In this document: positions 10,267 through 46,639 of the stretch, piece after piece
Position numbering within the stretch: position 1 is the stretch's first letter
Layout of the letters: each line of letters starts with the position of its first letter
Assembly: GCA_030698885.1 (NCBI GenBank)
Contig: JAUYLN010000020.1
Coordinates: 7,346-71,345 of the forward strand
Direction: 5' to 3'
DNA length: 64,000 bases
Source of the DNA: a bacterium
Lineage (GTDB): Bacteria; Patescibacteriota; Minisyncoccia; 2-02-FULL-40-12; IGHO2-01-FULL-4-A
Translations under genes and position numbers: made by a program
The notes under the pieces: generated by a model
What the model saw: only the letters and a program-made list of their open reading frames with translations
Told to the model about the DNA's origin: nothing
Databases searched by the model: none

Positions 10267-10336
10267 TCTACTGATTACTAATAAAATCACTAATATACTA
10301 ATTAGTACATTTGTATCCAATTCGTAATTAGTAGAT
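10267..10336 (+). repeat. Intergenic nested-palindrome element, copy A (rplC->rplD)
   Basis: TCTACTGATTACTAATAAAATCACTAATATAC...ATTCGTAATTAGTAGAT. It begins right after the TAA stop and ends 3 nt before the ATG. Confidence 0.85.
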
Positions 10337-10339
10337 GAA

Positions 10340-10996
10340 ATGAAGACAGATTTATACAATCAATCAGGAGAGGTGATAGGCGATGTCGAATTGCCCGACA
10401 AATTTTTTGGCGTTAAAGTTAATAACAACTTGGTGCATGAGGCTGTTGTAGCTCAGATGGCAAACAGGAGACAGGTTCTTGCCCACACTAAAGACAGAGG
10501 AGAGGTCAGGGGCGGAGGTATTAAACCTTGGAGACAAAAAGGTACAGGCAGGGCCAGGCACGGCTCCATCAGATCCCCAATCTGGGCTCATGGCGGAGTA
10601 GCTTTTGGACCGACCAAGAACAGGAATTTTTCCAAAAAAATAAATAAAAGGGCAAGGCAGGCTGCTGTGTTTATGGTGCTTTCTTCAAAATTGAAAAGTG
10701 AACACTTTATGGTTGTTGACCAGATAAAGCTAAACGAGGTTAAAACTAAGGAAGCAAATAACGTTTTATCTGTAATATCTGATAAATTTAAAAATTATAA
10801 AAAATCAAAAATTAAAAAGGACCCGGTGTTGATAGTGATGGCCGCCAAGAATCCGGAACTGCAGAGAACGTTTAGGAATCTGCCTTTTGTGGATGTTATG
10901 GGCGTTGATAGCTTGAATGTGGTAGATTTGCTAAAAAATAAGTATTTGTTAATGATGAAAGATTCAATTCAGGTGATGGAGAAACATTACAAGTAA
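10340..10996 (+). CDS. rplD: 50S ribosomal protein L4
   Basis: L4 homology (…GGGIKPWRQKGTGRARHGSIRSP…). Confidence 0.9.
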   Translation: MKTDLYNQSGEVIGDVELPDKFFGVKVNNNLVHEAVVAQMANRRQVLAHTKDRGEVRGGGIKPWRQKGTGRARHGSIRSPIWAHGGVAFGPTKNRNFSKKINKRARQAAVFMVLSSKLKSEHFMVVDQIKLNEVKTKEANNVLSVISDKFKNYKKSKIKKDPVLIVMAAKNPELQRTFRNLPFVDVMGVDSLNVVDLLKNKYLLMMKDSIQVMEKHYK

Positions 10997-11077
10997 TCTA
11001 CCAATTACTAATAAAATCACTAATATACTAACAGGAAATAGATTGGTAAATTCGTATCCAATTCGTAATTAGTAGAT
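10997..11077 (+). repeat. Intergenic nested-palindrome element, copy B (rplD->rplW)
   Basis: TCTACCAATTACTAATAAAATCACTAATATAC...ATTCGTAATTAGTAGAT, stop-to-start. Confidence 0.85.
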
Positions 11078-11080
11078 AAT

Positions 11081-11485
11081 ATGGGATTATTCAATAAAAA
11101 ATCTAAAAAAGAGGAAGAAGAAAAGCCGGAAAAAGCTACTGAAGTTATGCCGGAAGAAAAACAAGCCGAGCCCGGGGATGTGAAAGTGGTACTGCCGAAA
11201 GGCAAGAGTGCCAGCTCTTATAGTGTAATTTCAAACCCCTATGTTACGGAGAAATCTAGCATGCTTGCGCAGTTTAATCAGTACGTTTTTAAAGTTTCAA
11301 AAAATTCAAACAAAAAGGGAATCAAAGATTCAGTAGAAAAGCTTTATAACGTTAAAGTAGAAGATGTCAGAGTTGTTAATTTGCCCTCCAAGACAAGAAG
11401 AATAGGCAGGACGTTGGGCGTTAAAGCCGGTTATAAAAAGGCTATAGTTAGCCTAAGAGAGGGTGATAAAATTGAAGTCGTATAA
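11081..11485 (+). CDS. rplW: 50S ribosomal protein L23, with a ~45-aa Lys/Glu-rich N-terminal extension
   Basis: The C-terminal 90 aa match L23; the N-terminal extension is low-complexity. Confidence 0.85.
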   Translation: MGLFNKKSKKEEEEKPEKATEVMPEEKQAEPGDVKVVLPKGKSASSYSVISNPYVTEKSSMLAQFNQYVFKVSKNSNKKGIKDSVEKLYNVKVEDVRVVNLPSKTRRIGRTLGVKAGYKKAIVSLREGDKIEVV

Positions 11486-11601
11486 ATCTACCAATTACTA
11501 ATTTTATACTAATATACCAATAGAATTTATTAGTATATTAGTGATTTAATTCGTAATTCGTAGATTAAGTATATTAGTGACTTTATTAGTAATTAGTAGA
11601 T
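11486..11601 (+). repeat. Intergenic nested-palindrome element, copy C (rplW->rplB). A 1.5-unit copy with the 3' arm duplicated.
   Basis: It contains ...ATTCGTAATTCGTAGAT and a second ...ATTAGTAATTAGTAGAT. Confidence 0.85.
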
Positions 11602-11604
11602 AAC

Positions 11605-12444
11605 ATGGCAAAACATTACAAACCATATACAGCATCAAGAAGGCACATGACGGGTTATGATTTTTCAGGCCTGTCAAAAGTAGAGCCGTTAAAAAAATTA
11701 ACAGCCGGTTTTAAGCGTTCAGTAGGCAGGAACAATCAGGGTAGAATTACTACCAGGCATAAGGGTGGAGGAGTAAAAAGACTTTATAGGGCAGTAGACT
11801 TTAATCAAAACAAACTAAATATTTTGGCAAAAGTTGCGACCATTGAGTATGACCCGAATCGTTCAGCCCGTATCGCCAGACTTCATTATGCTGATGGAGA
11901 AAAAAGATATATTCTTGCACCGGATAATTTGAAAGTAGGAGATGCCGTTGTTGTAGGCGAGAAGACTGCTATAAAAATAGGTAACAGGATGAAGCTGAAG
12001 AATATTCTCCAGGGAACGATGGTCCATAATATTGAGATAAGTCCCGGCAGGGGCGGGCAACTGGCCAAATCAGCCGGAGCCGGTGCTATGGTTATGGCCA
12101 AAGAAGGCAATCATGTTCAAATACAATTACCGTCAGGAGAATTAAGAATGTTTAATGGTGAAGCGATGGCTTCCGTGGGTCAGTTATCAAATATTGAGCA
12201 CAATACGATTGTTATAGGAAAGGCAGGGCGTTCCAGGTGGATGGGCAGAAGGCCGGCGGTCCGTGGCAGTGCCATGAATCCGGTGGACCATCCACATGGT
12301 GGAGGAGAGGGCAGACAGGGCATCGGACTTAAGTATCCGAAGACGCCGTGGGGCAAGCATGCATTGGGAGTTAAGACCAGAGATAAAAAGAAGAAGAGCA
12401 GTAAATTTATAATAAGAAGAAGAAAGAAGAAGGCGAGGAAATAA
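11605..12444 (+). CDS. rplB: 50S ribosomal protein L2
   Basis: L2 homology (…HPHGGGEGR…). Confidence 0.95.
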
Positions 12445-12474
12445 TAAGTATTATCAGGCAGTAAGCTTTTTTCG

Positions 12475-12537
12475 GGTACGACATATTCGCCTGCTGGCGA
12501 ATTGTCTGGATCTCGCACCGTCGTGCTGCGATACACC
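12475..12537. repeat. Repeat GGTACGACAtATTCGCCTGCTGGCGAATTGTC...CGTCGTGCTGCG. A second copy at 41816-41878 lies downstream of fusA.
   Basis: The two copies lie downstream of rplB and fusA respectively. Confidence 0.6.
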
Positions 12538-12649
12538 CTAAAAAAGCCTACTGCCTGATGGAAGTTTAACAATTTACTTAAGAGGAAAGAGTGGTAATGG
12601 AATAAGGTAGATGTAATTGTAAATACAATTACATCCCGCTATTATTCGT

Positions 12650-12690
12650 AGATTCCTGCCTGCCGGCAGGCAGGCGAATGCCATTTGTAT
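12650..12690. repeat. GC-rich palindrome CCTGCCTGCCGGCAGGCAGG, a REP-like family member
   Basis: Perfect 20-bp palindrome. The same motif occurs at 35958-35980 and variants at 31067-31086 and 28165-28200. Confidence 0.6.
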
Positions 12691-12727
12691 ATTGGCATCG
12701 CGTAGCGAGCAAAGCGAGCGAAAAAAA

Positions 12728-12970
12728 TCAGACCCGTGGGGCCTGATTACAGTAAGCTTTAAAAATTTTGATCAAAGATAAGACAATGACGATTCCTAAA
12801 AACATCTTAATGGCGCCGAGATTGAACCAAAATAGATCCACGTCGCAATACCATACTTTGGCCAGCCCATTATCGGTTTGGCATATGTTTTCCATAATAG
12901 TACGGAAGAGATTTTCAAATTTAAAATATAAAAATATACATACAGCAAAGATTATCAATGGTAGTCTCAT
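12728..12970 (-). CDS. Small two-TM hydrophobic protein encoded antisense inside the r-protein operon (cassette 1)
   Basis: Minus strand: SD GGGAGA then ATG. The product has two hydrophobic helices. Its ends are conserved with the cassette at 15304-15799. Confidence 0.4.
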   Translation of the reverse strand: MRLPLIIFAVCIFLYFKFENLFRTIMENICQTDNGLAKVWYCDVDLFWFNLGAIKMFLGIVIVLSLIKIFKAYCNQAPRV

Positions 12971-13050
12971 TATCATTCTCCCAGTTGTCAAAAATCAAAA
13001 CTGATGATATTCTATCACGACTAAGCTATGTGTCAAATTAGTGTTTTGGT

Positions 13051-13115
13051 CATTGGGATTTGGAGCTTATTTAGGAATTAGAAATTAGGATTTAGAAATT
13101 AGAAATTCAAAGTTT
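13051..13115. repeat. AT-rich tandem repeat (GGAATTAGAAATTAGGATTTAGAAATTAGAAATT) upstream of rpsS. A related block lies at 45947-46062.
   Basis: Direct repeats of (a)gaaattag/ggatttag are seen in the sequence. Confidence 0.5.
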
Positions 13116-13168
13116 TATTAAATAAGAATTGATAAATATATAAAAAACAGATATTAAACTAAACTAAC

Positions 13169-13513
13169 ATGAGCAGATCACTAAAGAAGGGTCCTTTCGT
13201 GGATCCGAAATTACTGAAAAAAATAGGCAAGTTAAGAGCCGGCGACAAGACGGTTATTAAAACGTGGTCGCGTGCGTCAACGATAACGCCTGAAATGGTG
13301 GGCTTTACCTTTGGCGTGCACAACGGCAGAATACATTTACCGGTATTTGTGACCGAAGATATGGTCGGCCATAAGCTTGGCGAATTTTCTTTAACAAGAA
13401 AATTCGTAAGGCATGGTGGCAAGATGCAGAAAGAAATAGAAATCGCAGCCAAGCAGAAAGAGATAGATGCCGCCAAAGCTGCCAAAGTTGAGCCGGAGGC
13501 ACCTAAGAAGTAA
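13169..13513 (+). CDS. rpsS: 30S ribosomal protein S19, with a Lys/Ala/Glu-rich C-terminal extension
   Basis: S19 core homology. Confidence 0.9.
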
Positions 13514-13594
13514 TCTACCAATTACGAATTACATAACTAATATACGAATAATAAATAGATTAGTATATTAGTGATTTTATTCGTAATTAGTAGA
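13514..13594 (+). repeat. Intergenic nested-palindrome element, copy D (rpsS->rplV)
   Basis: TCTACCAATTACGAATT...GATTAGTATATTAGTGATTTTATTCGTAATTAGTAGA. Confidence 0.85.
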
Positions 13595-13599
13595 AATTT

Positions 13600-14118
13600 A
13601 TGGAAGTCAAAGCAAGCTTAAACAATTTAAGAATAAATCCCAGAAAAGTAAGATTGGTGGCTAACCTCATAAGAGGGTTAGATTTTGAGCAGGCAAAAAA
13701 CCAGCTTAACTTTATGATAAAAAGATCATCAAGTCCTATCTCTAAACTTCTTGATTCCGCGGCCGCTAATGCTGAAAATAATTTTAATTTAATCAGGAGT
13801 AATCTTTATATAAAGGAAATAACCGTTAATGAGGGCCGTAAGCTTAAAAGATTTAAAGCTAAGGGATTCGGACGGGCAATGCCAATACAGAAAAAAACTT
13901 CGCATATAAATGTTGTATTTGATGAAAGGGTGCCCGGACTTAAGCAGGAAGTAAGAAGCAAAAAAGAGGAGCAAAAGAGCGAAGAAGCCATGGACCACAA
14001 TCATGAGCACAAAGAAGAACCGAAATTCAAGAAAGAGATTAAAACTGAATCAAGGCAAAAGCAGAGCGATTTATTCGGAGGATTAAAGAAGAGAATGTTT
14101 AGAAGAAAAAGCATTTAA
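13600..14118 (+). CDS. rplV: 50S ribosomal protein L22, with a ~60-aa charged C-terminal extension
   Basis: The N-terminal 110 aa match L22. Confidence 0.9.
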   Translation: MEVKASLNNLRINPRKVRLVANLIRGLDFEQAKNQLNFMIKRSSSPISKLLDSAAANAENNFNLIRSNLYIKEITVNEGRKLKRFKAKGFGRAMPIQKKTSHINVVFDERVPGLKQEVRSKKEEQKSEEAMDHNHEHKEEPKFKKEIKTESRQKQSDLFGGLKKRMFRRKSI

Positions 14119-14200
14119 TCTACCAATTACTAATTTTATACGAATATACCTATGAAAGGCTTGATTAGTATATTAGTGATTTAATTCGTAATTAGTAGAT
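14119..14200 (+). repeat. Intergenic nested-palindrome element, copy E (rplV->rpsC)
   Basis: TCTACCAATTACTAATTTTATACGAATATACC...GTATATTAGTGATTTAATTCGTAATTAGTAGAT. Confidence 0.85.
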
Positions 14201-14203
14201 AAC

Positions 14204-14830
14204 ATGGGACAAAAAATATCACCAACATCATTAAGGATAGGAATTAGCAAGGACTGGTTGTCCAAGTGGTTTGGCGGCCGCAGATATAAGGAGTTGCTTG
14301 CCGAAGATTTTAAAGTCAGAACGATGTTGGCTAAAAAATTAAAGAGCATGAGTGTTGACAGGGTAGAGATAGAAAGAAGCCCCGATACGTATGCTGTCAC
14401 AGTCTATACTGCCAGGCCGGGACTTATTATAGGAAGAAGCGGAACAGGCGTGGAAGATGTAAAAGAGCAGATTAAAAAGATACTTAGCCGTAAAACTAAC
14501 GTAAGATTAGATATCCAAGAATATAAAAACCCTGAAACCTCTGCCAAAATAATGGCAGAATCAATGTCGGAACAGATTGAAAGAAGACTTCCATTCAGAA
14601 GAATTATGAAGCAAACTTTAATAAAAATAGTAGCGAGCAGAGACGTTAAGGGAGCAAAGATACAGATGTCGGGAAGATTGAATGGCGCCGAAATTGCAAG
14701 AACGGAACATTTGGAGCAGGGTAGTTTGCCTTTACAGACTTTGCGGGCAGATGTTGATTATGCCAGGGTAACGGCTCACACCACTTATGGAACGATAGGC
14801 ATAAAAGTCTGGATATACCGGGTCTACTAA
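14204..14830 (+). CDS. rpsC: 30S ribosomal protein S3
   Basis: S3 KH-domain homology. Confidence 0.9.
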   Translation: MGQKISPTSLRIGISKDWLSKWFGGRRYKELLAEDFKVRTMLAKKLKSMSVDRVEIERSPDTYAVTVYTARPGLIIGRSGTGVEDVKEQIKKILSRKTNVRLDIQEYKNPETSAKIMAESMSEQIERRLPFRRIMKQTLIKIVASRDVKGAKIQMSGRLNGAEIARTEHLEQGSLPLQTLRADVDYARVTAHTTYGTIGIKVWIYRVY

Positions 14831-14897
14831 TTACTAATTTGATACGAATATACTAATCTATTTTTTTATTAGTATATTAGTGATTTTATTCGTAGAT
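14823..14897 (+). repeat. Intergenic nested-palindrome element, copy F (rpsC->rplP). Its 5' arm overlaps the last codons and stop of rpsC, and its 3' arm is shortened.
   Basis: ...GTCTACTAATTACTAAT... runs through the rpsC stop; it ends ...TTCGTAGAT-TATG. Confidence 0.7.
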
Positions 14898-14898
14898 T

Positions 14899-15303
14899 AT
14901 GTTACAACCGAAAAGAATAAAACATAGAAAAGTACACAAGAGAAGGATGCATACCGTCGCGAGAAGGGGCAGTTATTTGAGCTTTGGCAATTTCGGGTTA
15001 AAGGCTACTGAGCCGGCTTATATAAAATCATCCCAGATAGAGTCAGCAAGAAGAGCCATAGCCAAATCAATAAAACGCGGAGGTAAGGTATGGATAAGAA
15101 TATTTCCGGATAAACCGTTTACGGCCAAGGGCGCGGAAGTAGGCATGGGTGCCGGAGCCGGAAGTTTATCTCATTTCGTTGCGCCGATAGAAGCCGGAAG
15201 AATAGTATTTGAAATGGCCGGTGTTACGGAAGATGTTGCCAAGGAGGCATTGAGGTTGGCAGGACATAAACTGCCGGTGAAGACGAGGTTTATTAAAAAA
15301 TAG
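14899..15303 (+). CDS. rplP: 50S ribosomal protein L16
   Basis: L16 homology. Confidence 0.9.
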
Positions 15304-15424
15304 TCGCTCCGACCTATCTGGCTTTTGTTTGGGTCATGCGAATCAGGAAAAATAAGAAGAAGGTAATAAAAATCAGGCCGGTGGGGCCTGATTATAACAA
15401 GCTAGTTAGTTATGAATTTTCGGA

Positions 15425-15655
15425 TTATAGCTTTTTTCTCACGAATAAATATAGGAGGGTCATTATCACCATAGTTGAAAGATCAATAGCTAATACTTCA
15501 TTTGTATTTAGGTCACCATGGCCTATCCCATATCCGAATAGGCTGAAAACATCGAAATTATTTAAATTGGAATTAAATATATAGCAGTTTATGGTATGAA
15601 ATAATAAAAGTGTGGCCACTAAAAGAAATGATGTATCAAGATGTATCTTGGCCAT
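15425..15655 (-). CDS. Small two-TM hydrophobic protein encoded antisense inside the r-protein operon (cassette 2)
   Basis: Minus strand: ...TTGACAACTGGGGAGGTTTGT-ATG, with SD GGAGG 5 nt before the ATG. It lies downstream of a conserved promoter-like block and is followed by the aatcaggccggtggggcctgatt hairpin. Confidence 0.4.
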   Translation of the reverse strand: MAKIHLDTSFLLVATLLLFHTINCYIFNSNLNNFDVFSLFGYGIGHGDLNTNEVLAIDLSTMVIMTLLYLFVRKKL

Positions 15656-15720
15656 ACAAACCTCCCCAGTTGTCAAAAATTAAAACTAATGCTATAGTAT
15701 CACAACTATGAAAAGTCATA

Positions 15721-15795
15721 AAGCTCTAAGGCCGTATAGCTATAAAGCTTAAAAAAGCTCTATGGCTCTACAGCTTTATGGCTTTAAGACCATAA
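15721..15795. repeat. Short tandem-repeat block (AAGCTCTAAGGCCGTATAGC...AAGCTCTATGGCTCTACAGCTTTATGGC) immediately upstream of rpmC
   Basis: The motif family (GCCGTAAAGC / AAGCTCTATGGC) is shared with 16237-16305 and 24551-24622. Confidence 0.6.
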
Positions 15796-15799
15796 AAAT

Positions 15800-15985
15800 A
15801 TGAAGTACAGTGAATTACAAAATAAGGGTGCAGAAGAGTTAAATAAAATGCTGGAAGAGCTGAAGATTAAGCTTGGAGAAATGAAGTTTCAGGTTGCCAG
15901 CAATGCCCTCAAAAATACCAACGAAATGGGCGCTGTAAAAAAAGATATTGCCCGAATTTTAACTATAATGCAGCAAACCGAATAA
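15800..15985 (+). CDS. rpmC: 50S ribosomal protein L29
   Basis: 61-aa L29-like protein positioned between rplP and rpsQ. Confidence 0.8.
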
Positions 15986-15986
15986 T

Positions 15987-16235
15987 ATGGAAAATCAAAA
16001 TAAAAAAAATAGGGTTTTGAAGGGTGTAGTAGTATCGGATAAGATGCAGAAGACTGCCGTTGTTGAGGTCTCAAGACTTATTAAGCATCCGAAATACAAA
16101 AAATATCATAAGGTCAGTAAAAGATTTAAGGCTCAAAATGATGACAATAAATATAAGACGGGAGAGAGGGTGTTAATTCAGGAAACAAGACCGATATCTA
16201 AAGATAAAAGATGGATTGTTATTGCTAAGCAATAA
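15987..16235 (+). CDS. rpsQ: 30S ribosomal protein S17
   Basis: S17 OB-fold homology; the ATG overlaps the rpmC stop. Confidence 0.9.
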
Positions 16236-16236
16236 A

Positions 16237-16305
16237 GCGGTAGCCCTAAAGCCGTAAGCCGTAAAGCTTTAAAGCTCTATGGCCATATGGCTCTATGGCT
16301 TTATA
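16237..16305. repeat. Short tandem-repeat block (GCCGTAAAGC / AAGCTCTATGGC family) upstream of rplN
   Basis: agccctaaagccgtaagccgtaaagctttaaagctctatggccatatggctctatggc. Confidence 0.6.
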
Positions 16306-16307
16306 TC

Positions 16308-16673
16308 TTGATTCAGTTAAGAAGTATAGTAAATGTAGCTGATAATAGCGGAGCCAAAAGAGTTGGCGTTTTTAAGGTTTTAGGAGGTTCCAGAAAAAGA
16401 TATGCCAGAATAGGTGATATTGTGGTTGTGTCAGTAAAAGAAGCTGAGCCAGGAAAACAGGTTAAGAAAAAAGAAGTGGTTAAGGCCGTGGTTGTCAGAC
16501 AGAGAAGTAATTTCAGGAGAAAAGACGGAAGCTATATCAGATTTGATGAGAATGCGGTTGTTATATTGGACGGAATGAATCCCAAGGGTGGACGTGTTTT
16601 CGGTCCGATACCAAGAGAAATAAAAGAGAAAGGTTTTGATCAGATTGCAAGCTTAGCCCAGGAAATAATATAA
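16308..16673 (+). CDS. rplN: 50S ribosomal protein L14. A TTG start is inferred from the conserved M-I-Q N-terminus; the track ORF begins at 16287 inside the tandem repeat.
   Basis: ...[16 protein letters not shown]... L14 motif. Confidence 0.8.
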
Positions 16674-16763
16674 ATCTACCAATTACGAATTAGATACTAA
16701 TATACAAACAAGAAATAAAGAAATAGATTGGTATATTGGTGACCTGATTAGTAATTAGTAGGT
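16674..16763 (+). repeat. Intergenic nested-palindrome element, copy G (rplN->rplX)
   Basis: ATCTACCAATTACGAATTAGATACTAATATAC...GGTATATTGGTGACCTGATTAGTAATTAGTAGGT. Confidence 0.85.
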
Positions 16764-16766
16764 AAT

Positions 16767-17072
16767 ATGAATATAAGAAAAGGCGACAATGTAATAATGA
16801 GAGGCGGAAAAGACCGAAGAAAGACCGGAAAAGTTTTGGCTGTACTGACAAAAGAAAACAGGGTAGTTATAGAAGGGCTTAATACTGTAAAGAGACATCT
16901 TAAAGCAAGGAAGCAAGGCCAGAAGGGGCAGGTAATAAATAAAGAGAGAGCGGTACCTCTATCTACGGTGCAGCTTGTTTGCAGTAAATGCGGTAAGCGG
17001 ACAAGGGTGGGGATTCAAGTAAGCGGGGACAAGAAGATAAGAGTTTGTAAAAAATGCGGAGGAGAAATTTAG
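16767..17072 (+). CDS. rplX: 50S ribosomal protein L24, with a C-terminal Cys4 zinc ribbon (CSKC...CKKC)
   Basis: An N-terminal KOW domain typical of L24. The C-terminus carries CxxC-x14-CxxC in place of the usual tail. Confidence 0.85.
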   Translation: MNIRKGDNVIMRGGKDRRKTGKVLAVLTKENRVVIEGLNTVKRHLKARKQGQKGQVINKERAVPLSTVQLVCSKCGKRTRVGIQVSGDKKIRVCKKCGGEI

Positions 17073-17153
17073 GTTTACCAATTACGAATTAGATACTAAT
17101 ATACGAATCGGAGTTCATTGGTATATTGGTGACCTGATTAGTAATTAGTAGAT
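17073..17153 (+). repeat. Intergenic nested-palindrome element, copy H (rplX->rplE)
   Basis: GTTTACCAATTACGAATTAGATACTAATATACG...GTATATTGGTGACCTGATTAGTAATTAGTAGAT. Confidence 0.85.
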
Positions 17154-17157
17154 GACC

Positions 17158-17709
17158 ATGAAAGAACCAAGATTACTAACTAAATATAGAAAAGAAGTAG
17201 CCCCTGCAATGCAGGCTAAGTTTAGCTATAAAAGTGTTATGGCCATACCAAAGATAGAAAAAATAATCCTTAATGTAGGTACGGGCAAGGCTGCAGTCGC
17301 AAAAGAGCAAAAACTTATGGATAAGATTGAGCAAGATTTGACCAAGATAACCGGTCAGAAGCCCTCAGTTAGAAAATCCAAAAAATCTATTTCCGGATTC
17401 AAGGTTCGTGAAGGAATGGATGTCGGCAAGATGGTTACCTTGCGTGGCAGAAGAATGTATGATTTTATGGACAGGTTGATATCTGTAGCCCTTCCAAGGT
17501 CAAGGGATTTTCACGGCCTGGATGCAAAGTCTTTTGATAAAAGTGGTAATTTTAATATGGGCATAAAAGAACAAAATATTTTTCCGGAAGTTGCCTATGA
17601 ATCATTGAAGGATATATTTGGTTTGCAGATAACAGTTACAACTACAGCAAAGAATAAAGAAGAAGGCAGGGAGCTGTTGAGCCTAATAGGTTTTCCAATA
17701 AAAAACTAA
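17158..17709 (+). CDS. rplE: 50S ribosomal protein L5. An alternative start at 17152 is formed by the last bases of the repeat.
   Basis: L5 homology. Spacing after the element matches other copies if the start is 17158. Confidence 0.85.
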   Translation: MKEPRLLTKYRKEVAPAMQAKFSYKSVMAIPKIEKIILNVGTGKAAVAKEQKLMDKIEQDLTKITGQKPSVRKSKKSISGFKVREGMDVGKMVTLRGRRMYDFMDRLISVALPRSRDFHGLDAKSFDKSGNFNMGIKEQNIFPEVAYESLKDIFGLQITVTTTAKNKEEGRELLSLIGFPIKN

Positions 17710-17795
17710 TCTACTAATTACTAATAAAATCACTAATATACGAAATACGAATAAAAATCATTAGTATATTAGTATCTAATTCGTAATTGGTAGAT
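17710..17795 (+). repeat. Intergenic nested-palindrome element, copy I (rplE->rpsZ)
   Basis: TCTACTAATTACTAATAAAATCACTAATATACG...TTAGTATATTAGTATCTAATTCGTAATTGGTAGAT. Confidence 0.85.
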
Positions 17796-17798
17796 GAT

Positions 17799-17984
17799 AT
17801 GCCGAAAAAATCAACAATTGCAAGGTCAAACAAGAAGCCAAAGTTTTCCAGCCGAACTGTTCTCAGGTGTTTTATATGCGGGCGTAAGCATGGCTTTATG
17901 AGAAAGTTTGGATTGTGCAGGATACATTTTAGAGAATTGGCCGGTGAGGGGTTACTTCCCGGAGTAAAGAAGTCGTCATGGTAA
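17799..17984 (+). CDS. rpsZ: 30S ribosomal protein S14, type Z (zinc-binding, 61 aa)
   Basis: MPKKS...[25 protein letters not shown], a CxxC...C zinc motif. Start taken at the conserved MPKK. Confidence 0.85.
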
Positions 17985-18055
17985 TCTACCAATTACCAAT
18001 AAAATCACTAATATACTAAATTAGTAAATTCGTACCAAATTCGTAATTAGTAGAT
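17985..18055 (+). repeat. Intergenic nested-palindrome element, copy J (rpsZ->rpsH)
   Basis: TCTACCAATTACCAATAAAATCACTAATATAC...AAATTCGTAATTAGTAGAT. Confidence 0.85.
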
Positions 18056-18061
18056 GATAAT

Positions 18062-18457
18062 ATGTATACATTAGGTAATATGCTAATACAATTAAAAAAT
18101 GCTCAATCCGTAGGACACGGGAGAGTTTTGGTGCCATTCTCCAAAATGAATTTGGCAGTGATAACCCTGCTTAAAGACGGCGGATTCATAGATGGTTTTG
18201 AAAAGAAAAAAAGAAAATTGAAAAAAAGCGAAGTTAATTTTATTGATGTTAAGCTAAATAGTGATGACGGTAAAAAAATAAATAATATAAAACTGGTATC
18301 AAAGCCTTCAAGAAGAATGTATATAGGTAAAAAAGAAATAAGACCCGTTATGGAAGGACATGGTATGCTTGTGGTTACTACGCCAAGAGGAGTTATTTCT
18401 GGAGAGGAAGCAAAAAAACAGGGAGTAGGCGGAGAGGCATTGTTTGAGGTCTGGTAA
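18062..18457 (+). CDS. rpsH: 30S ribosomal protein S8
   Basis: S8 homology. Confidence 0.9.
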   Translation: MYTLGNMLIQLKNAQSVGHGRVLVPFSKMNLAVITLLKDGGFIDGFEKKKRKLKKSEVNFIDVKLNSDDGKKINNIKLVSKPSRRMYIGKKEIRPVMEGHGMLVVTTPRGVISGEEAKKQGVGGEALFEVW

Positions 18458-18527
18458 TCTACCAATTACCAATAAAATCACTAATATACTAATTAGTAAA
18501 TTCGTACCAAATTCGTAATTAGTAGAT
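18458..18527 (+). repeat. Intergenic nested-palindrome element, copy K (rpsH->rplF), near-identical to copy J
   Basis: TCTACCAATTACCAATAAAATCACTAATATACTAATTAGTAAATTCGTACCAAATTCGTAATTAGTAGAT. Confidence 0.85.
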
Positions 18528-18532
18528 GATAC

Positions 18533-19078
18533 ATGAGCAGAATAGGTAAACAACCAATAAATATATCACAGGGAACAGAAGTCTTTATCGACGGCAGTTT
18601 GGTTCGGATAAAAGGACCCAAGGGAGAGCTTAGCATCAGTATCCCGCGACAGGCTACTGTTGAGAAAGATGATTCTGCCATTACCGTCAAAGTTAAGAAT
18701 AAAGAAGATAAAAAGCAAAGAGCAATTTGGGGACTGGTGCGTGCTCTACTGGCCAATATGGTTAAGGGAGTTAATGAGGGATTTGAAAAACAGCTGGAGT
18801 TTAGCGGAGTTGGCTTCAGGGCCGGCTTAAAAGGTCAAGACCTTGAGCTAAGCTTGGGGTTTTCTCATCCGGTTTTAATTAAGGCTCCGGCCGGCGTTGT
18901 TTTTAAAGTAGAGAAAAATACGATTACGGTTAGCGGTATAGATAAGCAGTTGGTTGGCCACGCCGCTGCCTTTATAAGGTCTAAGAAGCCGGTGGAACCA
19001 TATAAAGGAAAGGGCATTAAATATATCGGCGAGTATGTAAAAAGAAAAGCCGGCAAGAAAGCTGTAGCATCAGCATAA
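18533..19078 (+). CDS. rplF: 50S ribosomal protein L6
   Basis: L6 homology. Confidence 0.9.
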   Translation: MSRIGKQPINISQGTEVFIDGSLVRIKGPKGELSISIPRQATVEKDDSAITVKVKNKEDKKQRAIWGLVRALLANMVKGVNEGFEKQLEFSGVGFRAGLKGQDLELSLGFSHPVLIKAPAGVVFKVEKNTITVSGIDKQLVGHAAAFIRSKKPVEPYKGKGIKYIGEYVKRKAGKKAVASA

Positions 19079-19093
19079 ACTAAAAATAATATT

Positions 19094-19441
19094 ATGAAAC
19101 CATCAAAGCAAAAAAATAGAGAAAGACGCCATACTCGAATCAGAGCTAAGATTAAGGGTACTTTAGAGATACCGAGGGTTTCAGTTTTTAGAAGCAATAA
19201 AAATATTTTTGTTCAGTTTATTGATGATAAGTCCGGTAAAACACTGGTAAGTAATATTGTTAAGTCTTCAGAAGGAAAGGGTACTAAAACAGAGAAAGCC
19301 GCTACAATAGGCGAAACATTAGCCCAAAAAGCAATTCAGGCCGGAATAAGCAAGGTCGTATTTGATAGGGGCGGGTTTAATTATCACGGCAGAGTGAGGG
19401 CACTGGCGGAGGGCTTAAGAAAGGGAGGGCTGAAATTCTAG
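19094..19441 (+). CDS. rplR: 50S ribosomal protein L18
   Basis: L18 homology. Confidence 0.9.
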   Translation: MKPSKQKNRERRHTRIRAKIKGTLEIPRVSVFRSNKNIFVQFIDDKSGKTLVSNIVKSSEGKGTKTEKAATIGETLAQKAIQAGISKVVFDRGGFNYHGRVRALAEGLRKGGLKF

Positions 19442-19475
19442 AACTAAGCCATAGGCAATAAGTTGTACGATTTTC

Positions 19476-19508
19476 TTACAGCTTACAGCTTACAGCTTAC
19501 AGCTTTAG
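19476..19508. repeat. Heptamer tandem repeat (CAGCTTA) x ~4.5 between rplR and rpsE
   Basis: cttacagcttacagcttacagcttacagcttta, seen directly. Confidence 0.7.
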
Positions 19509-20101
19509 TGGAAAACAACAATCAACAACTAAATAGTGGGAGGCCCAGTAGGGGTGGAGGCAGGGGTGGAGGTGATCGTAGGCAAGGCAAGCGTCCCCCA
19601 AGAGAAAAGTCGGAATTTGATTCCAAGGTTTTAGATTTGGCCCGCGTAACCAGGGTTACCAAGGGCGGCAAGAGGTTCAGCTTCAGGGCCACGGTTGTTA
19701 TTGGCGACAGAAAGGGCAGTGTCGGTCTTGGTGTTGCTCAGGGCAGTGATGTTGCTCAGTCAGTACAAAAAGCCACTAACCAGGCCAAAAGATTTTTAAT
19801 GTATGTTCCAAAATTGGGCAGTTCTATACCACACAAAGTTGAAAATAAATATAGTTCTGCTTCGGTTTTACTAAAACCGGCTGTTAAGGGCAACGGCCTA
19901 AAGGCCGGTGGTCCGGTCAGGGCGGTTATAAGTCTTGCCGGCATAGAGGATTTGACTGCCAAGTTGCTTAACAGAACCAGAAATAAAATAAATATAGCAA
20001 GGGCAACCATGGGAGCGCTGGCAAAACTAAAAGTTTCAGCCAAGGATAAGCCCCTGCCTGTCGTGCAGGTAGGTGAATCTGCTCAAGAAAATAAAGCTTA
20101 A
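19508..20101 (+). CDS. rpsE: 30S ribosomal protein S5 with an Arg/Gly-rich N-terminal extension. The start is uncertain: GTG at 19508 just after the heptamer repeat is preferred, with TTG at 19463 as the alternative.
   Basis: S5 core ...RVTKGGKRFSFRATVVIGD... preceded by GRPSRGGGRGGGDRRQGKRPP. Confidence 0.75.
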   Translation: MENNNQQLNSGRPSRGGGRGGGDRRQGKRPPREKSEFDSKVLDLARVTRVTKGGKRFSFRATVVIGDRKGSVGLGVAQGSDVAQSVQKATNQAKRFLMYVPKLGSSIPHKVENKYSSASVLLKPAVKGNGLKAGGPVRAVISLAGIEDLTAKLLNRTRNKINIARATMGALAKLKVSAKDKPLPVVQVGESAQENKA

Positions 20102-20105
20102 AATT

Positions 20106-20567: not shown

Positions 20568-20649
20568 ATTTACCAATTACCAATAAAATCACTAATATAC
20601 AAATAAGAAATGGATTCGTATATTAGTACCAGATTAGTAATTAGTAGAT
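20568..20649 (+). repeat. Intergenic nested-palindrome element, copy L (rplO->secY)
   Basis: ATTTACCAATTACCAATAAAATCACTAATATAC...GTATATTAGTACCAGATTAGTAATTAGTAGAT. Confidence 0.85.
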
Positions 20650-20653
20650 AATC

Positions 20654-22712: not shown

Positions 22713-22798
22713 AAGTTCACAAAGTTCGTAAGGTTAATAAAGTAAAGTCAAACAAAACTTTAAAAACTTTAAACTTTAAAACTTTATAAACTAGATTC

Positions 22799-35251: not shown

Positions 35252-35332
35252 TCTACTAATTACTAATTTCATACTAATATACTAATCTATTTCTTATTCG
35301 TATATTAGTGATTTTATTAGTAATTGGTAGAT
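35252..35332 (+). repeat. Intergenic nested-palindrome element, copy M (upstream of the ftsB-like gene)
   Basis: TCTACTAATTACTAATTTCATACTAATATAC...GTATATTAGTGATTTTATTAGTAATTGGTAGAT. Confidence 0.8.
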
Positions 35333-38625: not shown

Positions 38626-38706
38626 TCTACCAATTACGAATTTTGTACTAATATACTAATAGAATTTAAATTCGTATATTAGTGATTTAATTAGTAATTA
38701 GTAGAT
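38626..38706 (+). repeat. Intergenic nested-palindrome element, copy N (upstream of rpsL)
   Basis: TCTACCAATTACGAATTTTGTACTAATATAC...GTATATTAGTGATTTAATTAGTAATTAGTAGAT. Confidence 0.85.
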
Positions 38707-39120: not shown

Positions 39121-39201
39121 TCTACCAATTACTAATCGGGTACTAATGTACGAATAAAATCAGGATTAGTATATTAGTGATTTAATTAGTAATTAGTAGA
39201 T
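39121..39201 (+). repeat. Intergenic nested-palindrome element, copy O (rpsL->rpsG)
   Basis: TCTACCAATTACTAATCGGGTACTAATGTACG...GATTAGTATATTAGTGATTTAATTAGTAATTAGTAGAT. Confidence 0.85.
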
Positions 39202-41787: not shown

Positions 41788-41815
41788 TCGCTCGTGCATA
41801 CTATCAACTTTTAAA

Positions 41816-41878
41816 GGTACGACACATCCGCCTGCTGGCGGATTGTCTTTTGTTCGCGCCGTCGCGCTCCACAGAACC
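41816..41878. repeat. Second copy of the GGTACGACA...CGCCTGCTGGCG... repeat (first copy at 12475-12537)
   Basis: Near-identical to the copy downstream of rplB. Confidence 0.6.
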
Positions 41879-41920
41879 TTTAAAAATTAATAGTATGCCA
41901 CTCGCTTGGGGTGGAGGGAT

Positions 41921-41980
41921 AAAATTACAATTTATTTACAACCGCTCGCTCAAATAAATTAAAAACTATGGCTGGCCTCG
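41921..41980. repeat. Solo copy of the MITE terminal repeat (AAAATTACAATTTATTTACAACCGCTCGCTCAAATAAATTAAAAACTATGGCTGGCCTCG)
   Basis: ~90% identical to TIR-R at 34833-34891. Confidence 0.6.
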
Positions 41981-42066: not shown

Positions 42067-42165
42067 ATAACTAGTTTATACAAAGGGCATCTTTGTAATT
42101 ACAAAGATGCCCTTTGTTGTGCCTGATACTGGATACTTAATACTTAATACGATATAATAATTTTA

Positions 42166-42882: not shown

Positions 42883-42964
42883 TCTACTAATTACTAATAA
42901 AATCACTAATATACGAATAAGATTAAAATTTAGTATATTCGTATCAGATTAGTAATTGGTAGAT
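42883..42964 (+). repeat. Intergenic nested-palindrome element, copy P (GT2->galT-like)
   Basis: TCTACTAATTACTAATAAAATCACTAATATACG...GTATATTCGTATCAGATTAGTAATTGGTAGAT. Confidence 0.85.
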
Positions 42965-43971: not shown

Positions 43972-44033
43972 TCTACTAATTACTCGTATGTTCCTTATTA
44001 GTATATTGGTGATTTTATTGGTAATTAGTAGAT
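43972..44033 (+). repeat. Intergenic nested-palindrome element, copy Q (galT-like->tpiA), short form
   Basis: TCTACTAATTACTCGTATG...TTAGTATATTGGTGATTTTATTGGTAATTAGTAGAT. Confidence 0.8.
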
Positions 44034-44037: not shown

Positions 44038-44799
44038 ATGAAAAAACTAATCATCGCAAACTGGAAAGATAACCCTGCAACCGCCAAAGAGGCGGAAGAG
44101 CTTTTTTATTTTTACTATGATGCCTATTCGGAATTAAGAGATAAGATAGACCTAGTCGTTTGCCCGCCAGCAGTCTATATTCAGGAGTTGGCTGCAATAT
44201 CAAAGAGCATGCCTCTGGGCGCCCAGGATGTGTCCTGGGAGAGTTCGGTGGGTCCTCATACCGGAGAAATTACTGCTGATGTTTTGAAAAATTTAGGCGT
44301 GGAGTACGTTTTGGTCGGACATTCAGAGCGCAGATACGGCATAGGCGAGAGCGATGAGGTTATAAGCAAAAAACTAAAGGCAGCCCTTTCTGCCGGATTA
44401 ACCCCGGTGCTTATCGTAGGAGAAAGGAATAATCAGGATGACCGTAAAAAAATAATTGAAGAGCAGTTAGCGATTGACCTGGATGCCCTGGATCCGGAAA
44501 GCGTATCAAAGATTATTCTGGCTTATGAGCCGGTGTGGGCTATCAGTACAAGCCAAGATGGTCATCCGGACACACCCCAAAACGCATTTGATGCACTTGG
44601 CGAAATTAAGAATTTCGTCTTTGAAACTTACCGGGTCAGGCCGGATGCGTATAGGTCCGTTTATGGCGGAAGCATTACCGAAGGCAATGTAGCTGCTTTT
44701 CTGGGTCATGATGAAATAAATGGCGCCCTGATAGGAGGAGCAAGCCTTCGCAAAGAAGAGTTCTCCAGTATTTTAAAGATAGTCAGCGAGCTTAAATGA
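44038..44799 (+). CDS. tpiA: Triosephosphate isomerase
   Basis: ...VLVGHSERR... and the TIM barrel motifs. Confidence 0.9.
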   Translation: MKKLIIANWKDNPATAKEAEELFYFYYDAYSELRDKIDLVVCPPAVYIQELAAISKSMPLGAQDVSWESSVGPHTGEITADVLKNLGVEYVLVGHSERRYGIGESDEVISKKLKAALSAGLTPVLIVGERNNQDDRKKIIEEQLAIDLDALDPESVSKIILAYEPVWAISTSQDGHPDTPQNAFDALGEIKNFVFETYRVRPDAYRSVYGGSITEGNVAAFLGHDEINGALIGGASLRKEEFSSILKIVSELK

Positions 44800-45923
44800 T
44801 AAAATACATTGATGAATTAAGGGAGGACGAGCTAAAAGATAAAAAAGTTCTGTTGCGGACGGATTTTGATGTCCCTTTCGTGAATGGCCGGATTCAGGAA
44901 GATTTCCGCATTAAAGCCCAAAAAGAAACCATTGATTATCTTATCGGTCTGGGAGCAAAAGTGGTTATGGTTGCTCATATTTCTGCCATCGATTCTTTTG
45001 AAGAGCTTGTTCCCCAGCTTCGTATAATACTAGGTCGCGAATTTGGATTTATAAAAAAGTTAGAGCAATTAGGTCAATTAGAGCAATTAGGTCAATTGAT
45101 TTTGTTAGATAACATCCGCCAGGATTCCCGCGAAGAGAAAAATAACGAGGGGTTTGCCCAAGAGCTATCTGAGGGTTTTGATATTTATGTAAATAATGCT
45201 TTTGCCGTTTCTCATCGTAACCATGCTTCGGTTTCGGCCGTTACCAAAAAACTGCCAGCATATGGCGGATTATTGATAAAAAAAGAGATAGCAGGCTTAT
45301 CCCGTGCCATTGATTGTCCGGCCGAAGGCAAGATATTAGTTCTAGGCGGAGCCAAGATATCTACCAAAATGCCCGTCATTGCCAATTTTTTTGATAAAGC
45401 CGAGAAGATATTGGTCGGAGGGGCAATAGCAAACAATTTTTTTAAAGTTCTGGGAATTGATGTAGGCTCTTCATTAGTTGATAATAATGTTTCTGTAAAT
45501 ATTAAAAGCGAAAAGGTAATCTTGCCGGAAGATATATTGATAGCTGACAAAAAAACCAACGAGATGGAGGATGGCGCCAGTTCGCTCAAGAATGTTAAGG
45601 AGGGCTATTTCATAGCTGACATTGGGCCTAAAAGCGTTCAAAAATTTTGCGAGATAATAAAAGGGGCTAAGATGGTCATCTGGAATGGCCCGATGGGATA
45701 TGCTGAAATAGAAAAGTTTTCACACGCTACCCATATGATAGCCAAGGCTGTTGCTGATTCCGAAGCGGAAAGCATTGTCGGGGGAGGCGATACAGTGGCA
45801 TTAGTCAGAGAATTGAATATAATGGATAAGTTCAGCTATGTTTCAACCGGTGGCGGGGCGATGCTGGAGTTTCTGACTGGAAACAAACTGCCGGGACTTG
45901 AAGTGTTGGGATACTATAATTAA
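44796..45923 (+). CDS. pgk: Phosphoglycerate kinase, containing an in-frame 18-bp tandem duplication that encodes LEQLGQ-LEQLGQ
   Basis: PGK N- and C-domain motifs. Its ATG overlaps the tpiA stop. Confidence 0.9.
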   Translation: MIKYIDELREDELKDKKVLLRTDFDVPFVNGRIQEDFRIKAQKETIDYLIGLGAKVVMVAHISAIDSFEELVPQLRIILGREFGFIKKLEQLGQLEQLGQLILLDNIRQDSREEKNNEGFAQELSEGFDIYVNNAFAVSHRNHASVSAVTKKLPAYGGLLIKKEIAGLSRAIDCPAEGKILVLGGAKISTKMPVIANFFDKAEKILVGGAIANNFFKVLGIDVGSSLVDNNVSVNIKSEKVILPEDILIADKKTNEMEDGASSLKNVKEGYFIADIGPKSVQKFCEIIKGAKMVIWNGPMGYAEIEKFSHATHMIAKAVADSEAESIVGGGDTVALVRELNIMDKFSYVSTGGGAMLEFLTGNKLPGLEVLGYYN

Positions 45924-46062
45924 TTGACATTGTGTCAATTAATTAAAATCCTAAGTCCAAAATCCTAAATTCTAAATAAAATTGAAATTATAAATGGTTT
46001 GAAAATTGGGATTTTAGATATTGGGATTTGTTTAGAAATTAGATATTAGGATTTAGAAATTT
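45919..46062. repeat. Palindrome TAATTAATTGACA-TTG-TGTCAATTAATTA at the pgk stop, followed by a long imperfect inverted repeat of the AGGATTTAGAAATT family
   Basis: Left arm aatcctaagtccaaaatcctaaattctaaat; right arm atttagaaattagatattaggatttagaaattt. Confidence 0.55.
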
Positions 46063-46094
46063 GGGGGCAGTATAAATATAAATTATTTTTAAAT

Positions 46095-46553
46095 ATGGTT
46101 AAGGCCGATATAAATAACAAGGAATTATATATAATCCACACTGATGGCGGTTCGCGGGGCAATCCCGGCCCGTCTGCTATTGGCGTGGTCATAGCCGATT
46201 ACGACGGTTCGCTTAAGAAAGAATATTCGGAGTACATAGGCGAAACAACGAATAACGAAGCCGAATACCAGGCCATAATTTTTGCTTTGAAAAAATTAAA
46301 ACAGCTTATCGGTAAGGAAAAAGCTTCAAATGCGAAGCTGGAATTTCATGTGGACAGCGAGCTTGCAGTTAAACAGCTAAACGGTGAATATAAACTGAAT
46401 GATAAAAATATTCAGAGATTTTTTATTGAGATTTGGAATAATAAATTAGATTACGGTGAGGTAACTTTTAAGCATGTGCCCAGAGAAGACAATAAAGAAG
46501 CCGACAAATTGGTAAATGCGGCCTTAGATAAAGAATTAAACAAATTATTTTAA
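46095..46553 (+). CDS. rnhA: Ribonuclease H (RNase HI-like)
   Basis: ...IIHTDGGSRGNPGPSAIGVV...NNEAEYQAII...HVPREDNKEADKL..., the DEDD catalytic residues. Confidence 0.75.
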   Translation: MVKADINNKELYIIHTDGGSRGNPGPSAIGVVIADYDGSLKKEYSEYIGETTNNEAEYQAIIFALKKLKQLIGKEKASNAKLEFHVDSELAVKQLNGEYKLNDKNIQRFFIEIWNNKLDYGEVTFKHVPREDNKEADKLVNAALDKELNKLF

Positions 46554-46557
46554 ATAA

Positions 46558-46639
46558 TCTACCAATTACGAATTAAATCACTAATATACGAATGAGAAGT
46601 CTTGATTAGTATATTGGTATAAAATTAGTAATTAGTAGG
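46558..46639 (+). repeat. Intergenic nested-palindrome element, copy R (rnhA->DoxX)
   Basis: TCTACCAATTACGAATTAAATCACTAATATACG...GATTAGTATATTGGTATAAAATTAGTAATTAGTAGG. Confidence 0.85.

Follow-up and report, generated by a model that had tools for sequence, protein, structure and literature searches.

The repeats and their place in the operon

The 64-kb window considered here, that is, the whole stretch of DNA analysed, belongs to contig JAUYLN010000020.1 of a bacterium of the Candidate Phyla Radiation (CPR), which a comparison of SecY places in or next to Candidatus Yanofskybacteria (named matches are 75-77% identical). It carries a ribosomal-protein gene cluster in which, as at some other gene junctions of the window, the gap between one cistron and the next is filled by a copy of the same short palindromic element, called here the TCTAC family after its terminal sequence. 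Eighteen copies of 61-88 nt each, non-coding and dispersed, are found in 36 kb. The flanking genes encode the ribosomal proteins L3, L4, L23, L2, S19, L22, S3, L16, L14, L24, L5, S14, S8, L6, L15, S12 and S7, as well as SecY, DivIC, a GT2 glycosyltransferase, GalT, TIM, RNase H and DoxX; Pfam confirms L3 to L5 of this list and the last six proteins. Ribosomal-protein operons are among the tightest and most conserved gene strings of bacteria, and here palindromes of ~80 nt run throughout them. The copies are listed below with no strand assigned; bits are scores of the covariance model described after the list, dG values are in kcal/mol, and loci of relatives carry numbers of the type L082.

Copy A, 10267-10335: rplC/rplD junction; 69.7 bits, dG -15.0
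Copy B, 10997-11076: rplD/rplW junction; 82.5 bits
Copy C, 11487-11564: rplW/rplB junction; 82.3 bits
Extra right half on copy C, 11565-11600: 36-nt tandem duplication of the right arm (period 36, 1.9 copies, 11532-11601)
Copy D, 13514-13594: rpsS/rplV junction; 89.4 bits, dG -25.7, z -8.1
Copy E, 14119-14199: rplV/rpsC junction; the relative L082 has the same family at the same junction
Copy F, 14823-14896: rpsC/rplP junction; 52.4 bits; right outer arm truncated; rpsC takes its last codons and its stop from this copy
Copy G, 16675-16762: rplN/rplX junction; covariance-model match
Copy H, 17074-17152: rplX/rplE junction; its end overlaps the first ATG
Copy I, 17710-17794: rplE/rpsN junction; covariance-model match
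Copy J, 17985-18054: rpsN/rpsH junction; 98% identical to K
Copy K, 18458-18526: rpsH/rplF junction; covariance-model match
Copy L, 20569-20648: rplO/secY junction; when inverted, 90% identity to M
Copy M, 35252-35331: upstream of a DivIC-like gene, 26 nt before its ATG
Copy N, 38626-38705: directly upstream of rpsL; covariance-model match
Copy O, 39121-39200: rpsL/rpsG junction; 90.5 bits
Copy P, 42883-42963: GT2 glycosyltransferase/GalT junction; covariance-model match
Copy Q, 43972-44032: GalT/TIM junction; 39.4 bits; left inner arm deleted
Copy R, 46558-46639: RNase H/DoxX junction; covariance-model match

The inner-arm 15-mer, with up to three mismatches, was found 24 times where 3.9 occurrences were expected, and the outer-arm 16-mer 37 times where 1.2 were expected; no shuffled sequence gave numbers that high. 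A covariance model built from the alignment of the 18 copies, and used to scan the whole window with filters off, recovered the 18 and nothing beyond them below E=0.2; every copy was matched on both strands, with comparable scores. The copies recognized in an earlier, sequence-only reading of the stretch are thus all real, with C, G, H and L beginning 1 nt later than it had placed them. That reading had also seen a degenerate half-copy before tuf (7787-7803), which is unsupported, since the model matches the 18 copies and has no match there.

Each copy extends from TCTAC to GTAGA and is made of heptamer units, TACNAAT in the left arm and ATTNGTA in the right arm. The left arm reads TC-TACNAAT-TACNAAT, a spacer of 3-6 nt, then (C/T)ACNAAT-(A)TACNAAT. 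The right arm mirrors it with ATTNGTA units and has GTAGA at the 3' end; in either arm the units are usually arranged 2+2. Terminal inverted repeats, TCTACNAATTACNAAT / ATTNGTAATTNGTAGA, bound 16 of the 18 copies, the exceptions being F, which is without most of the right arm, and Q, which departs from the left-arm motif. The elements have a GC content of 19-30%. Stop codons are present in all three frames in 17 of them and ATG is almost absent, occurring in just five.

Placement between cistrons and translation starts

All 18 copies lie between a stop codon and the next ATG. The left end is found 0-1 nt past the stop, and 0-9 nt separate the right end from the ATG, except in copy M (26 nt), so that the stop-to-start placement described earlier, including the overlap of copy F with the rpsC stop, is confirmed from the coordinates. 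Junctions of translation genes are occupied far more often than the others of the window (14/24 versus 4/32, p=0.0004).

Such a placement would suit a module selected by the host for punctuating or coupling its cistrons, either as endonuclease sites that would give short-leader units translated independently of a Shine-Dalgarno (SD) sequence, or as stems that the terminating ribosome would open at their base, making the next start accessible only if the cistron before it is translated. The genes downstream of the elements do lack an SD. An SD-like 4-mer precedes none of the 18, compared with 9 of 39 other genes (p=0.045), and the contrast drawn in the sequence-only reading is therefore true, but it is not specific to the element, since none of the 11 ribosomal-protein or elongation factor (EF) genes without an element has an SD-like 4-mer either. 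The absence of an SD is thus a trait of the gene class and of the genome. This counts against the host-selected module and weakens the second of three roles proposed for the elements, that of an initiation module replacing the SD. Two related explanations were rejected. An SD brought close to the start by the hairpin would have to come from the 3' ends of the upstream genes, which have no consistent SD, and an alternative pairing of the anti-SD with ...TAGTAGAT was discarded, other genes of the window using the canonical AAGGAGG. In unrelated contigs (loci L081, L110, L079, L102, L015 and L073), the TCTAC element is followed by a recurrent extension of 8-9 nt before the start, GTAGA-TAGCGAAGC-(N)-ATG.

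Hairpin folding and selection on RNA structure

The arms had been predicted to form hairpins, and all 18 copies indeed fold as such, with a dG of -10 to -27 kcal/mol and a z of -1.8 to -9.9. The stem is ~27-30 bp long with internal loops, the terminal loop measures 10-25 nt, and the N positions of the heptamers break the helix roughly once in 7 nt. The sequence-only reading went further and saw compensatory changes in the outer stem, taken as a sign of selection on RNA structure rather than of recent transposition. The alignment points the other way. The modelled structure has 32 pairs, and 89% of the alignment cells of the 18 copies are paired; these cells are uninformative on structure because nearly all of those pairs never vary. 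A change on both sides of a pair occurs in one cell only. The variable columns, 6/86, 13/79, 25/67 and 33/59, are unpaired in 12/17, 13/18, 7/17 and 12/17 copies, respectively, and are thus mostly mismatched. The covariation score over the 18 copies is 0.038, against 0.053 in shuffles, and 500 of 500 shuffles scored at least as high.

Copies from other genomes, oriented by their flanking genes, give the same picture. The outer N pair is Watson-Crick in 16 of 56, which is the chance level (0.28 expected), and G·U pairs (15) are not above A·C mismatches (17). Nor does the sense strand have a folding advantage: the comparison of sense and antisense minimum free energies came to 25 versus 28 for the TCTAC family and to 20 versus 27 for the junction hairpins of all heptamer types. 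Among the window copies, C·A mismatches predominate on the sense strand. Moreover, both internal orientations occur although every flanking gene is on the + strand, and inverted copies can be closely similar (L versus M, 90% identity; B versus M, 88%).

Selection on a strand-specific RNA is therefore unsupported, because covariation and a sense-strand advantage are both absent and copies lie in both orientations; with the mosaic occupancy described below, the evidence runs opposite to the earlier claim. The same results bear on the host-selected module, which has against it that covariation is absent, that mismatches at N are at or above chance, that the transcribed strand folds no better than its complement, with C·A mismatches prevailing on the sense strand in the window, and that the host keeps copies in both orientations.

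Gain and loss among relatives

Syntenic operons were compared in L149 (SecY 84% identical), L152 (83%), L151 (Yanofskybacteria GCA_016181175.1, 77%) and L082. The covariance model found no TCTAC copy in the operons of L149 or L151, the close relatives with the best sampling, a weak match only in L152, and one strong copy plus a weak match in L082. At the junctions occupied in the window, the spacers of L149 and L151 are about 3-40 nt long (2-30 nt at many of these junctions in L151), and elements of 68-86 nt stand in the window where L149 has the following short spacers:

S19/L22: 12 nt
L22/S3: 17 nt
S3/L16: 17 nt
L24/L5: 18 nt
S14/S8: 26 nt
S8/L6: 24 nt
L15/SecY: 36 nt

Orthologous sites are therefore empty or differently filled in L149, L151, L152 and L082, as a comparison of species, not of strains. 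That operons of relatives might lack the element had been raised from the sequence, and L149 and L151 bear it out, occupancy being a mosaic. At other junctions, the relatives carry hairpins made of different 7-8-nt units (GCGATACCAAT…, AAAGTTn, GAGCTAT, GGCATAT, AACATTT, TTTCTAA), most of them with z below -4. Across ~14 lineages, spacers are bimodal, ~30 nt or less versus 70-130 nt, and the junctions that are long vary by lineage. Copy F has replaced a protein end: S3 terminates in WIYRVY* in the window, with a stop taken from the TCTAC-TAA of the element, and in WIYKAGS* in L082. Copies J and K, 473 nt apart, are nearly identical. From the absence in L149 and L151, the mosaic of junctions, the replaced S3 end and the identity of J and K, the window copies are, as far as such comparisons can tell, a lineage-specific burst of a horizontally distributed repeat and not an ancestral regulatory structure. 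For a host-selected module, these relatives cut both ways. Their junctions without the TCTAC family often hold another heptamer hairpin, as would suit a function of the hairpin as such, but close relatives manage with short spacers and no insert at the very same junctions.

Distribution in other genomes

An exact two-arm pattern with 27-28 fixed bases was searched in ~185,000 species genomes and matches eight: two Saccharibacteria, two Wolfebacteria, one Parcubacteria, one 'Patescibacteria' and two contigs binned as Bacteroidota. The loci L005 and L007, in Bacteroidota/Bacteroidia metagenome-assembled genomes, represent either mis-binned CPR DNA or a genuine presence beyond the CPR. In metagenomes, more than 120 stretches are among the matches listed, mostly from groundwater or sediment. 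Viral contigs gave zero matches to the pattern, and a phage origin was rejected. The inner arms are conserved elsewhere too, though the search pattern did not require them. Within each unit N is free, and the other six bases hardly change from one phylum-level lineage to the next.

The family is sparse elsewhere, with 1-2 copies per ribosomal-protein operon in Saccharibacteria, Wolfebacteria and other CPR lineages. Among 100 unique copies from outside the window, 56 lie between a gene end and a gene start in co-directional pairs, 11 between convergent genes and 2 between divergent genes. A stop most often abuts the left end, and the ATG mostly follows the right end by 1-20 nt (mode 6). Seventeen of the 100 adjoin one of 25 S10/spc/str genes, against ~5-6% expected by our own rough estimate; ~24 of the fetched loci carry parts of the S10/spc/str operons and one is an ATP-synthase operon.

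This distribution bears on several explanations. The elements could be transcription signals, either promoters for leaderless mRNAs or intrinsic terminators or attenuators; the closeness of the right end to the ATG and the 11 convergent positions would speak for this. Promoter-like matches, however, number 37 versus 34.8 expected, i.e. background, and good sigma-70-like sites lie outside the elements, at 12985 and 15670. A GC-rich stem with a T-run behind it is absent from all the elements, a terminator scan flags none, twelve terminators in one essential operon would be implausible, and divergent gene pairs are rare (2/100). We find this explanation scarcely credible.

A second explanation is simple-sequence expansion in place, by slippage in AT-rich spacers that became palindromic by chance or by local rearrangement, with no mobility involved. 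Many other tandem arrays of 7-8-nt units do occur in the spacers of the window, including a perfect CTTACAG x4.4, and heptamers are the commonest long simple repeats in prokaryotes according to Mrazek 2007, as cited in PMC4679880. Slippage cannot, however, produce identical composite palindromes at unlinked sites, and one ~80-nt composite, identical in its ends, its inner arms and its spacing, is present 18 times here and again in distant phylum-level lineages. We hold it to be very improbable.

The host-selected module gains more from the distribution, in that tight stop-to-start placement holds in many lineages, the family is over-represented in the operons for ribosomal proteins, EFs and ATP synthase, and the heptamer sequence is kept across lineages. 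Set against the results on folding, orientation, empty sites and SD given above, these points leave such a module, in our judgement, unlikely.

Relation to described repeats

Several families of palindromic repeats are known to be transcribed within operons. The Correia elements of Neisseria, the enterobacterial ERIC and the pneumococcal RUP and BOX are repeats resembling miniature inverted-repeat transposable elements (MITEs) that are co-transcribed in operons, and the stems of Correia elements are cut by RNase III. The TCTAC family resembles them in its small size and lack of coding sequence, its terminal inverted repeats, its many intergenic copies dispersed in either orientation, its presence or absence at orthologous sites of different species and its predicted hairpins in the mRNA. 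It differs in having no clear target-site duplication and no cognate insertion sequence seen, and also in its arms of heptamer modules with a free middle base, its conservation of sequence across phylum-level lineages and its exact stop-to-start placement. The REP/BIME/REPIN repeats are imperfect palindromes located downstream of stops in operons, with GTAG 5' of the hairpin of each unit, and are associated with RAYT transposases. Here too GTAG is found at the element boundary and inverted doublets give long hairpins, but on either strand it closes the 3' end, and a single arm is a direct array of heptamers and not itself palindromic. No Y1 (RAYT-type) transposase domain was found in any of the 45 proteins scanned from these 64 kb of the genome.

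Other systems share the intercistronic position. MIRU are mycobacterial repeats of 40-100 bp that fill intercistronic gaps, are unidirectional and carry small open reading frames (ORFs) overlapping the flanking genes. The TCTAC copies likewise touch stop and start in operon gaps, yet they lie in both orientations and 17 of the 18 have stops in all frames. The intercistronic RNase III sites of phage T7 are hairpins with internal loops, at which cleavage separates the mRNAs. Internal-loop hairpins between the cistrons of one long transcript are common to both cases; the T7 sites are unique, neither repeated nor mobile, and cleavage is known for T7 and would apply here only by analogy.

Cyanobacterial STRR repeats are heptameric as well. 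A closer parallel is the heptamer TAACTGA, which forms intergenic direct repeats in Beggiatoaceae, Cyanobacteria and Bacteroidetes (MacGregor 2015, PMC4679880). These arrays contain stop codons and end a few nt before starts, with an SD being rare downstream; they are over-represented before translation genes and in ribosomal-protein operons, have no assigned function, and are patchy across phyla, which suggests horizontal spread (PMC4679880). In the TCTAC family, similarly, the right arm, ATTNGTA x2 + x2, ends just before the ATG of genes that all lack an SD (0/18). The difference is that TAACTGA forms a direct array of one exact heptamer, whereas two inverted arrays with fixed ends are found here.

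TIGR-Tas or CRISPR-like arrays, judged from partial descriptions of them, were rejected, the copies being dispersed single units and not tandem arrays. Rfam has no match in the window at the gathering score and, at E<=0.1 in 9000-21000, just a chance microRNA match outside the elements. Searches of the literature for the arm sequences, for CPR intergenic palindromes or MITEs and for PF05635 (see below) turned up no account of the TCTAC family in the searchable literature. The statement that no system like this had been described was nevertheless too strong. The family is real, and unusual in its build and placement; its closest kin are the intervening sequences of rRNA, treated next, the MITE/REP-type repeats and the TAACTGA arrays.

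PF05635 genes and the intervening sequences of 23S rRNA

A different element of the window, not one of the 18, has a similar inverted build and contains a gene:

PF05635-bearing element, 54426-54867, + strand: inverted TAAGTAT/ATACTTA arrays enclosing an ORF

The gene, at 54462-54842, encodes a four-helix-bundle protein of PF05635/TIGR02436 ('23S rRNA intervening sequence protein', Avd-related) and lies between pilB-like and pilC-like genes, with TAAGTAT… upstream and …ATACTTA downstream. Nine PF05635 genes were compared, this one and eight from Falkowbacteria, Gribaldobacteria, Yanofskybacteria and other CPR contigs. Heptamer arrays flank all nine, are clearly inverted on both sides in seven, and span the distance from the upstream stop to the downstream start. 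The commonest flanking unit, TATGAAT/ATTCATA, is one base away from the TACGAAT/ATTCGTA of the TCTAC family. The homologues are 65-76% identical across CPR groups, and the heptamer sequences beside different PF05635 genes differ widely.

Solo arrays of the TAAGTAT type also occur. They fill the spacer before four pilin-like genes (55990-56023, 56486-56518, 58172-58194 and 58666-58695), and the array together with the first ~20 coding nt, ATG(A/G)ATACAAAAA…, is common to these four genes and the PF05635 gene. Further solo arrays are found at 42133-42150 and 48590-48714.

The 23S rRNA intervening sequence (IVS) of Coxiella has a terminal stem of 28 bp, three to four tandem heptamers and an ORF for S23p, a PF05635 protein (PMC4990558). 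It is excised by RNase III, which cuts at the first repeat, and was deemed selfish by the authors; S23p is apparently not expressed, and PF05635 proteins are reported to be homopentamers (PMC4990558). The 18 copies share with IVSs the terminal inverted repeats that form a long stem (~28 bp) with tandem heptamers and the very highly transcribed host genes, and in IVSs the PF05635 ORF is optional, many having none. They differ in lying between protein-coding cistrons and not in rRNA helices (23S helix 25 or 45), in having no ORF and loops of only 10-25 nt, and in their heptamer sequence; also, RNase III cuts the stem and repeats of IVSs, and cleavage of the 18 copies would follow by analogy only. 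Given the heptamer arrays around the PF05635 genes and the published build of the Coxiella IVS, the 18 copies look like ORF-less versions of the IVS architecture, set in mRNA instead of rRNA.

In another explanation, the arrays are cis sites for a protein reading units of the TAC-N-AAT type, possibly a pentameric, Avd-like PF05635 protein, and belong to a single system, mobile or regulatory, in which the ORF-bearing form would be autonomous and the TCTAC copies non-autonomous. It would fit the flanking of nine PF05635 genes out of nine, the free N with six fixed bases around it on each arm independently, the similarity of the homologues across CPR groups, and the fact that many of the 7-nt-period arrays of the window have ~4-5 units and the proteins are homopentameric (PMC4990558). 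On the other side, PF05635 genes and TCTAC copies are not physically linked: a hidden Markov model of 120 PF05635 proteins, run on ~1 Mb of loci with the element, found none beside TCTAC copies or between their arms, and one unrelated PF05635 gene in all. The fold has no known nuclease or recombinase activity, S23p of Coxiella is apparently unexpressed (PMC4990558), and the heptamers beside different PF05635 genes diverge widely. We therefore consider this explanation rather improbable.

Mobile palindromes or host modules?

The reading that we favour, and to which we give slightly better than an even chance, is that the copies are selfish, non-autonomous palindromes of the IVS or MITE kind that have spread horizontally in the CPR, have expanded sharply in this genome and are tolerated at cistron junctions. 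Nearly all surviving copies sit in the short gaps, of a few nucleotides, that separate co-directional cistrons. Once transcribed, a copy would fold into an AU-rich hairpin whose base leaves no more than a few nucleotides between the upstream stop and the downstream start, and termination-reinitiation or coupling could persist across the folded copy. Operon expression would then survive an insertion because the base of the hairpin holds the stop near the next start, which would also account for the survival of stop-to-start insertions alone.

Two of the three roles first proposed for the elements fit into this frame. RNase III may cut the stem, as it does with 23S IVS stems, and the stem is a plausible substrate; endonucleolytic processing of the polycistronic mRNA stays plausible, with a parallel in the IVSs that RNase III excises. 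Were the stems cut, the expression of CPR operons would proceed from short-leader mRNAs produced by processing; were they left uncut, they would offer a natural test of translational coupling across an 80-nt hairpin. The remaining role, a site-specific MITE that targets stop codons, has fared unequally: a mobile, MITE-like element is the best supported of the three, and the targeting of stop codons is not shown, because no target-site duplication is significant.

A number of observations weigh against selfish palindromes. Direct repeats of 3 nt flank 8 of 70 copies, against 4.5±1.9 expected (p=0.06), and repeats of 2 nt and 4 nt are not significant among the same 70; the flanks are biased to T-W-A on both sides. 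Neither a TCTAC-ended autonomous partner nor a transposase was found in ~1 Mb of element-bearing loci, two candidate arm pairs having been inspected. Solo arms turned out to be of other heptamer types, and the inspected stretches between paired solo arms hold ordinary genes (L23, ATP synthase a subunit). The enrichment beside translation genes could mean function rather than tolerance. The link to IVSs rests on the shared architecture and on a heptamer resemblance of six positions in seven. Finally, fixed non-N bases beside a free N are not what simple neutral decay would leave of a selfish repeat. They may point to a host function or to a factor that reads the sequence, for which the PF05635 pentamer would be an obvious candidate.

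The two lines of thought can be combined in a broader and more speculative proposal, which we rate as doubtful: heptamer-array palindromes, with or without a PF05635 gene, would form one unrecognised class of CPR elements, in which the protein reads the 7-nt units, excision by RNase III makes insertions harmless, and ORF-less copies punctuate operon transcripts into single mRNAs. Mitochondrial transcripts, punctuated by tRNAs, offer a comparison. If true, the proposal would explain the origin of 23S rRNA IVSs and the role of the very large TIGR02436 family.

The precise placement of the copies, their heptamer build with a free middle base and the arrays beside PF05635 genes provide a testable bridge between the IVSs of rRNA, a huge orphan four-helix-bundle family and the heptamer repeats before SD-less genes. 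CPR genomes tolerate or use structured inserts at cistron boundaries, other heptamer types being found likewise in many CPR lineages. On the practical side, the repeats fragment short-read assemblies (Logan contigs found for this genome, which is also present in SRR13727534, measure 1-1.6 kb) and lead gene callers astray at starts and stops.

Other repeats and features of the window

Heptamer arrays are a general trait of the spacers of this genome, since several other families of 7-8-nt arrays fill them: TTAGAAA/AGGATTT, AAAGCynT, AAACTTT and the CTTACAG array mentioned above, several of them inverted. They lie at 13060-13107, 15712-15794, 16234-16319, 19475-19505, 22713-22800, 24547-24632 and 45946-46061.

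The ribosomal-protein cluster is split by two long gaps, 12445-13168 (L2/S19) and 15304-15799 (L16/L29). Conserved in each are a hairpin, AAAAATCAGrCCsGTGGGGCCTGATT, that can be read as a terminator on the minus strand, and a promoter-like block on the + strand, CCCAGTTGTCA-N17-TATwsT; in the first gap there is, in addition, a minus-strand promoter matching at 11/12. The hairpin and the promoter-like blocks are present in the relative L082 as well. The small minus-strand ORFs of the two gaps are not mutually homologous and have no Pfam match. In the same cluster, L22 (13600-14118) has a C-terminal extension of ~65 aa, for a total of 172 aa, and L23 (11081-11485) an N-terminal extension of ~48 aa, for a total of 134 aa.

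Further repeats occur in pairs or small sets. A GC-richer structured repeat of 78 nt follows rplB directly at 12468-12545 and fusA directly at 41809-41886 (73% identity); 60-nt repeats at 34832-34891 and 41921-41980 are 93% identical, and 34-nt perfect-stem hairpins at 26040-26073 and 35003-35036 are 97% identical. A GC palindrome of the CCTGCCTGCCGGCAGGCAGG type is found at ~12680, ~28170 and ~31060 and also in Wolfebacteria-like contigs (L003, L022, L060), often within structured inserts of 150-220 nt at ribosomal-protein junctions. Lastly, a class A RNase P RNA is encoded at 60984-61425 on the + strand (91.3 bits, E 3e-28, slightly below the Rfam gathering score of 100 and hence absent from the default scan), and the ORF at 61229-61477, which lies inside it, is probably spurious.

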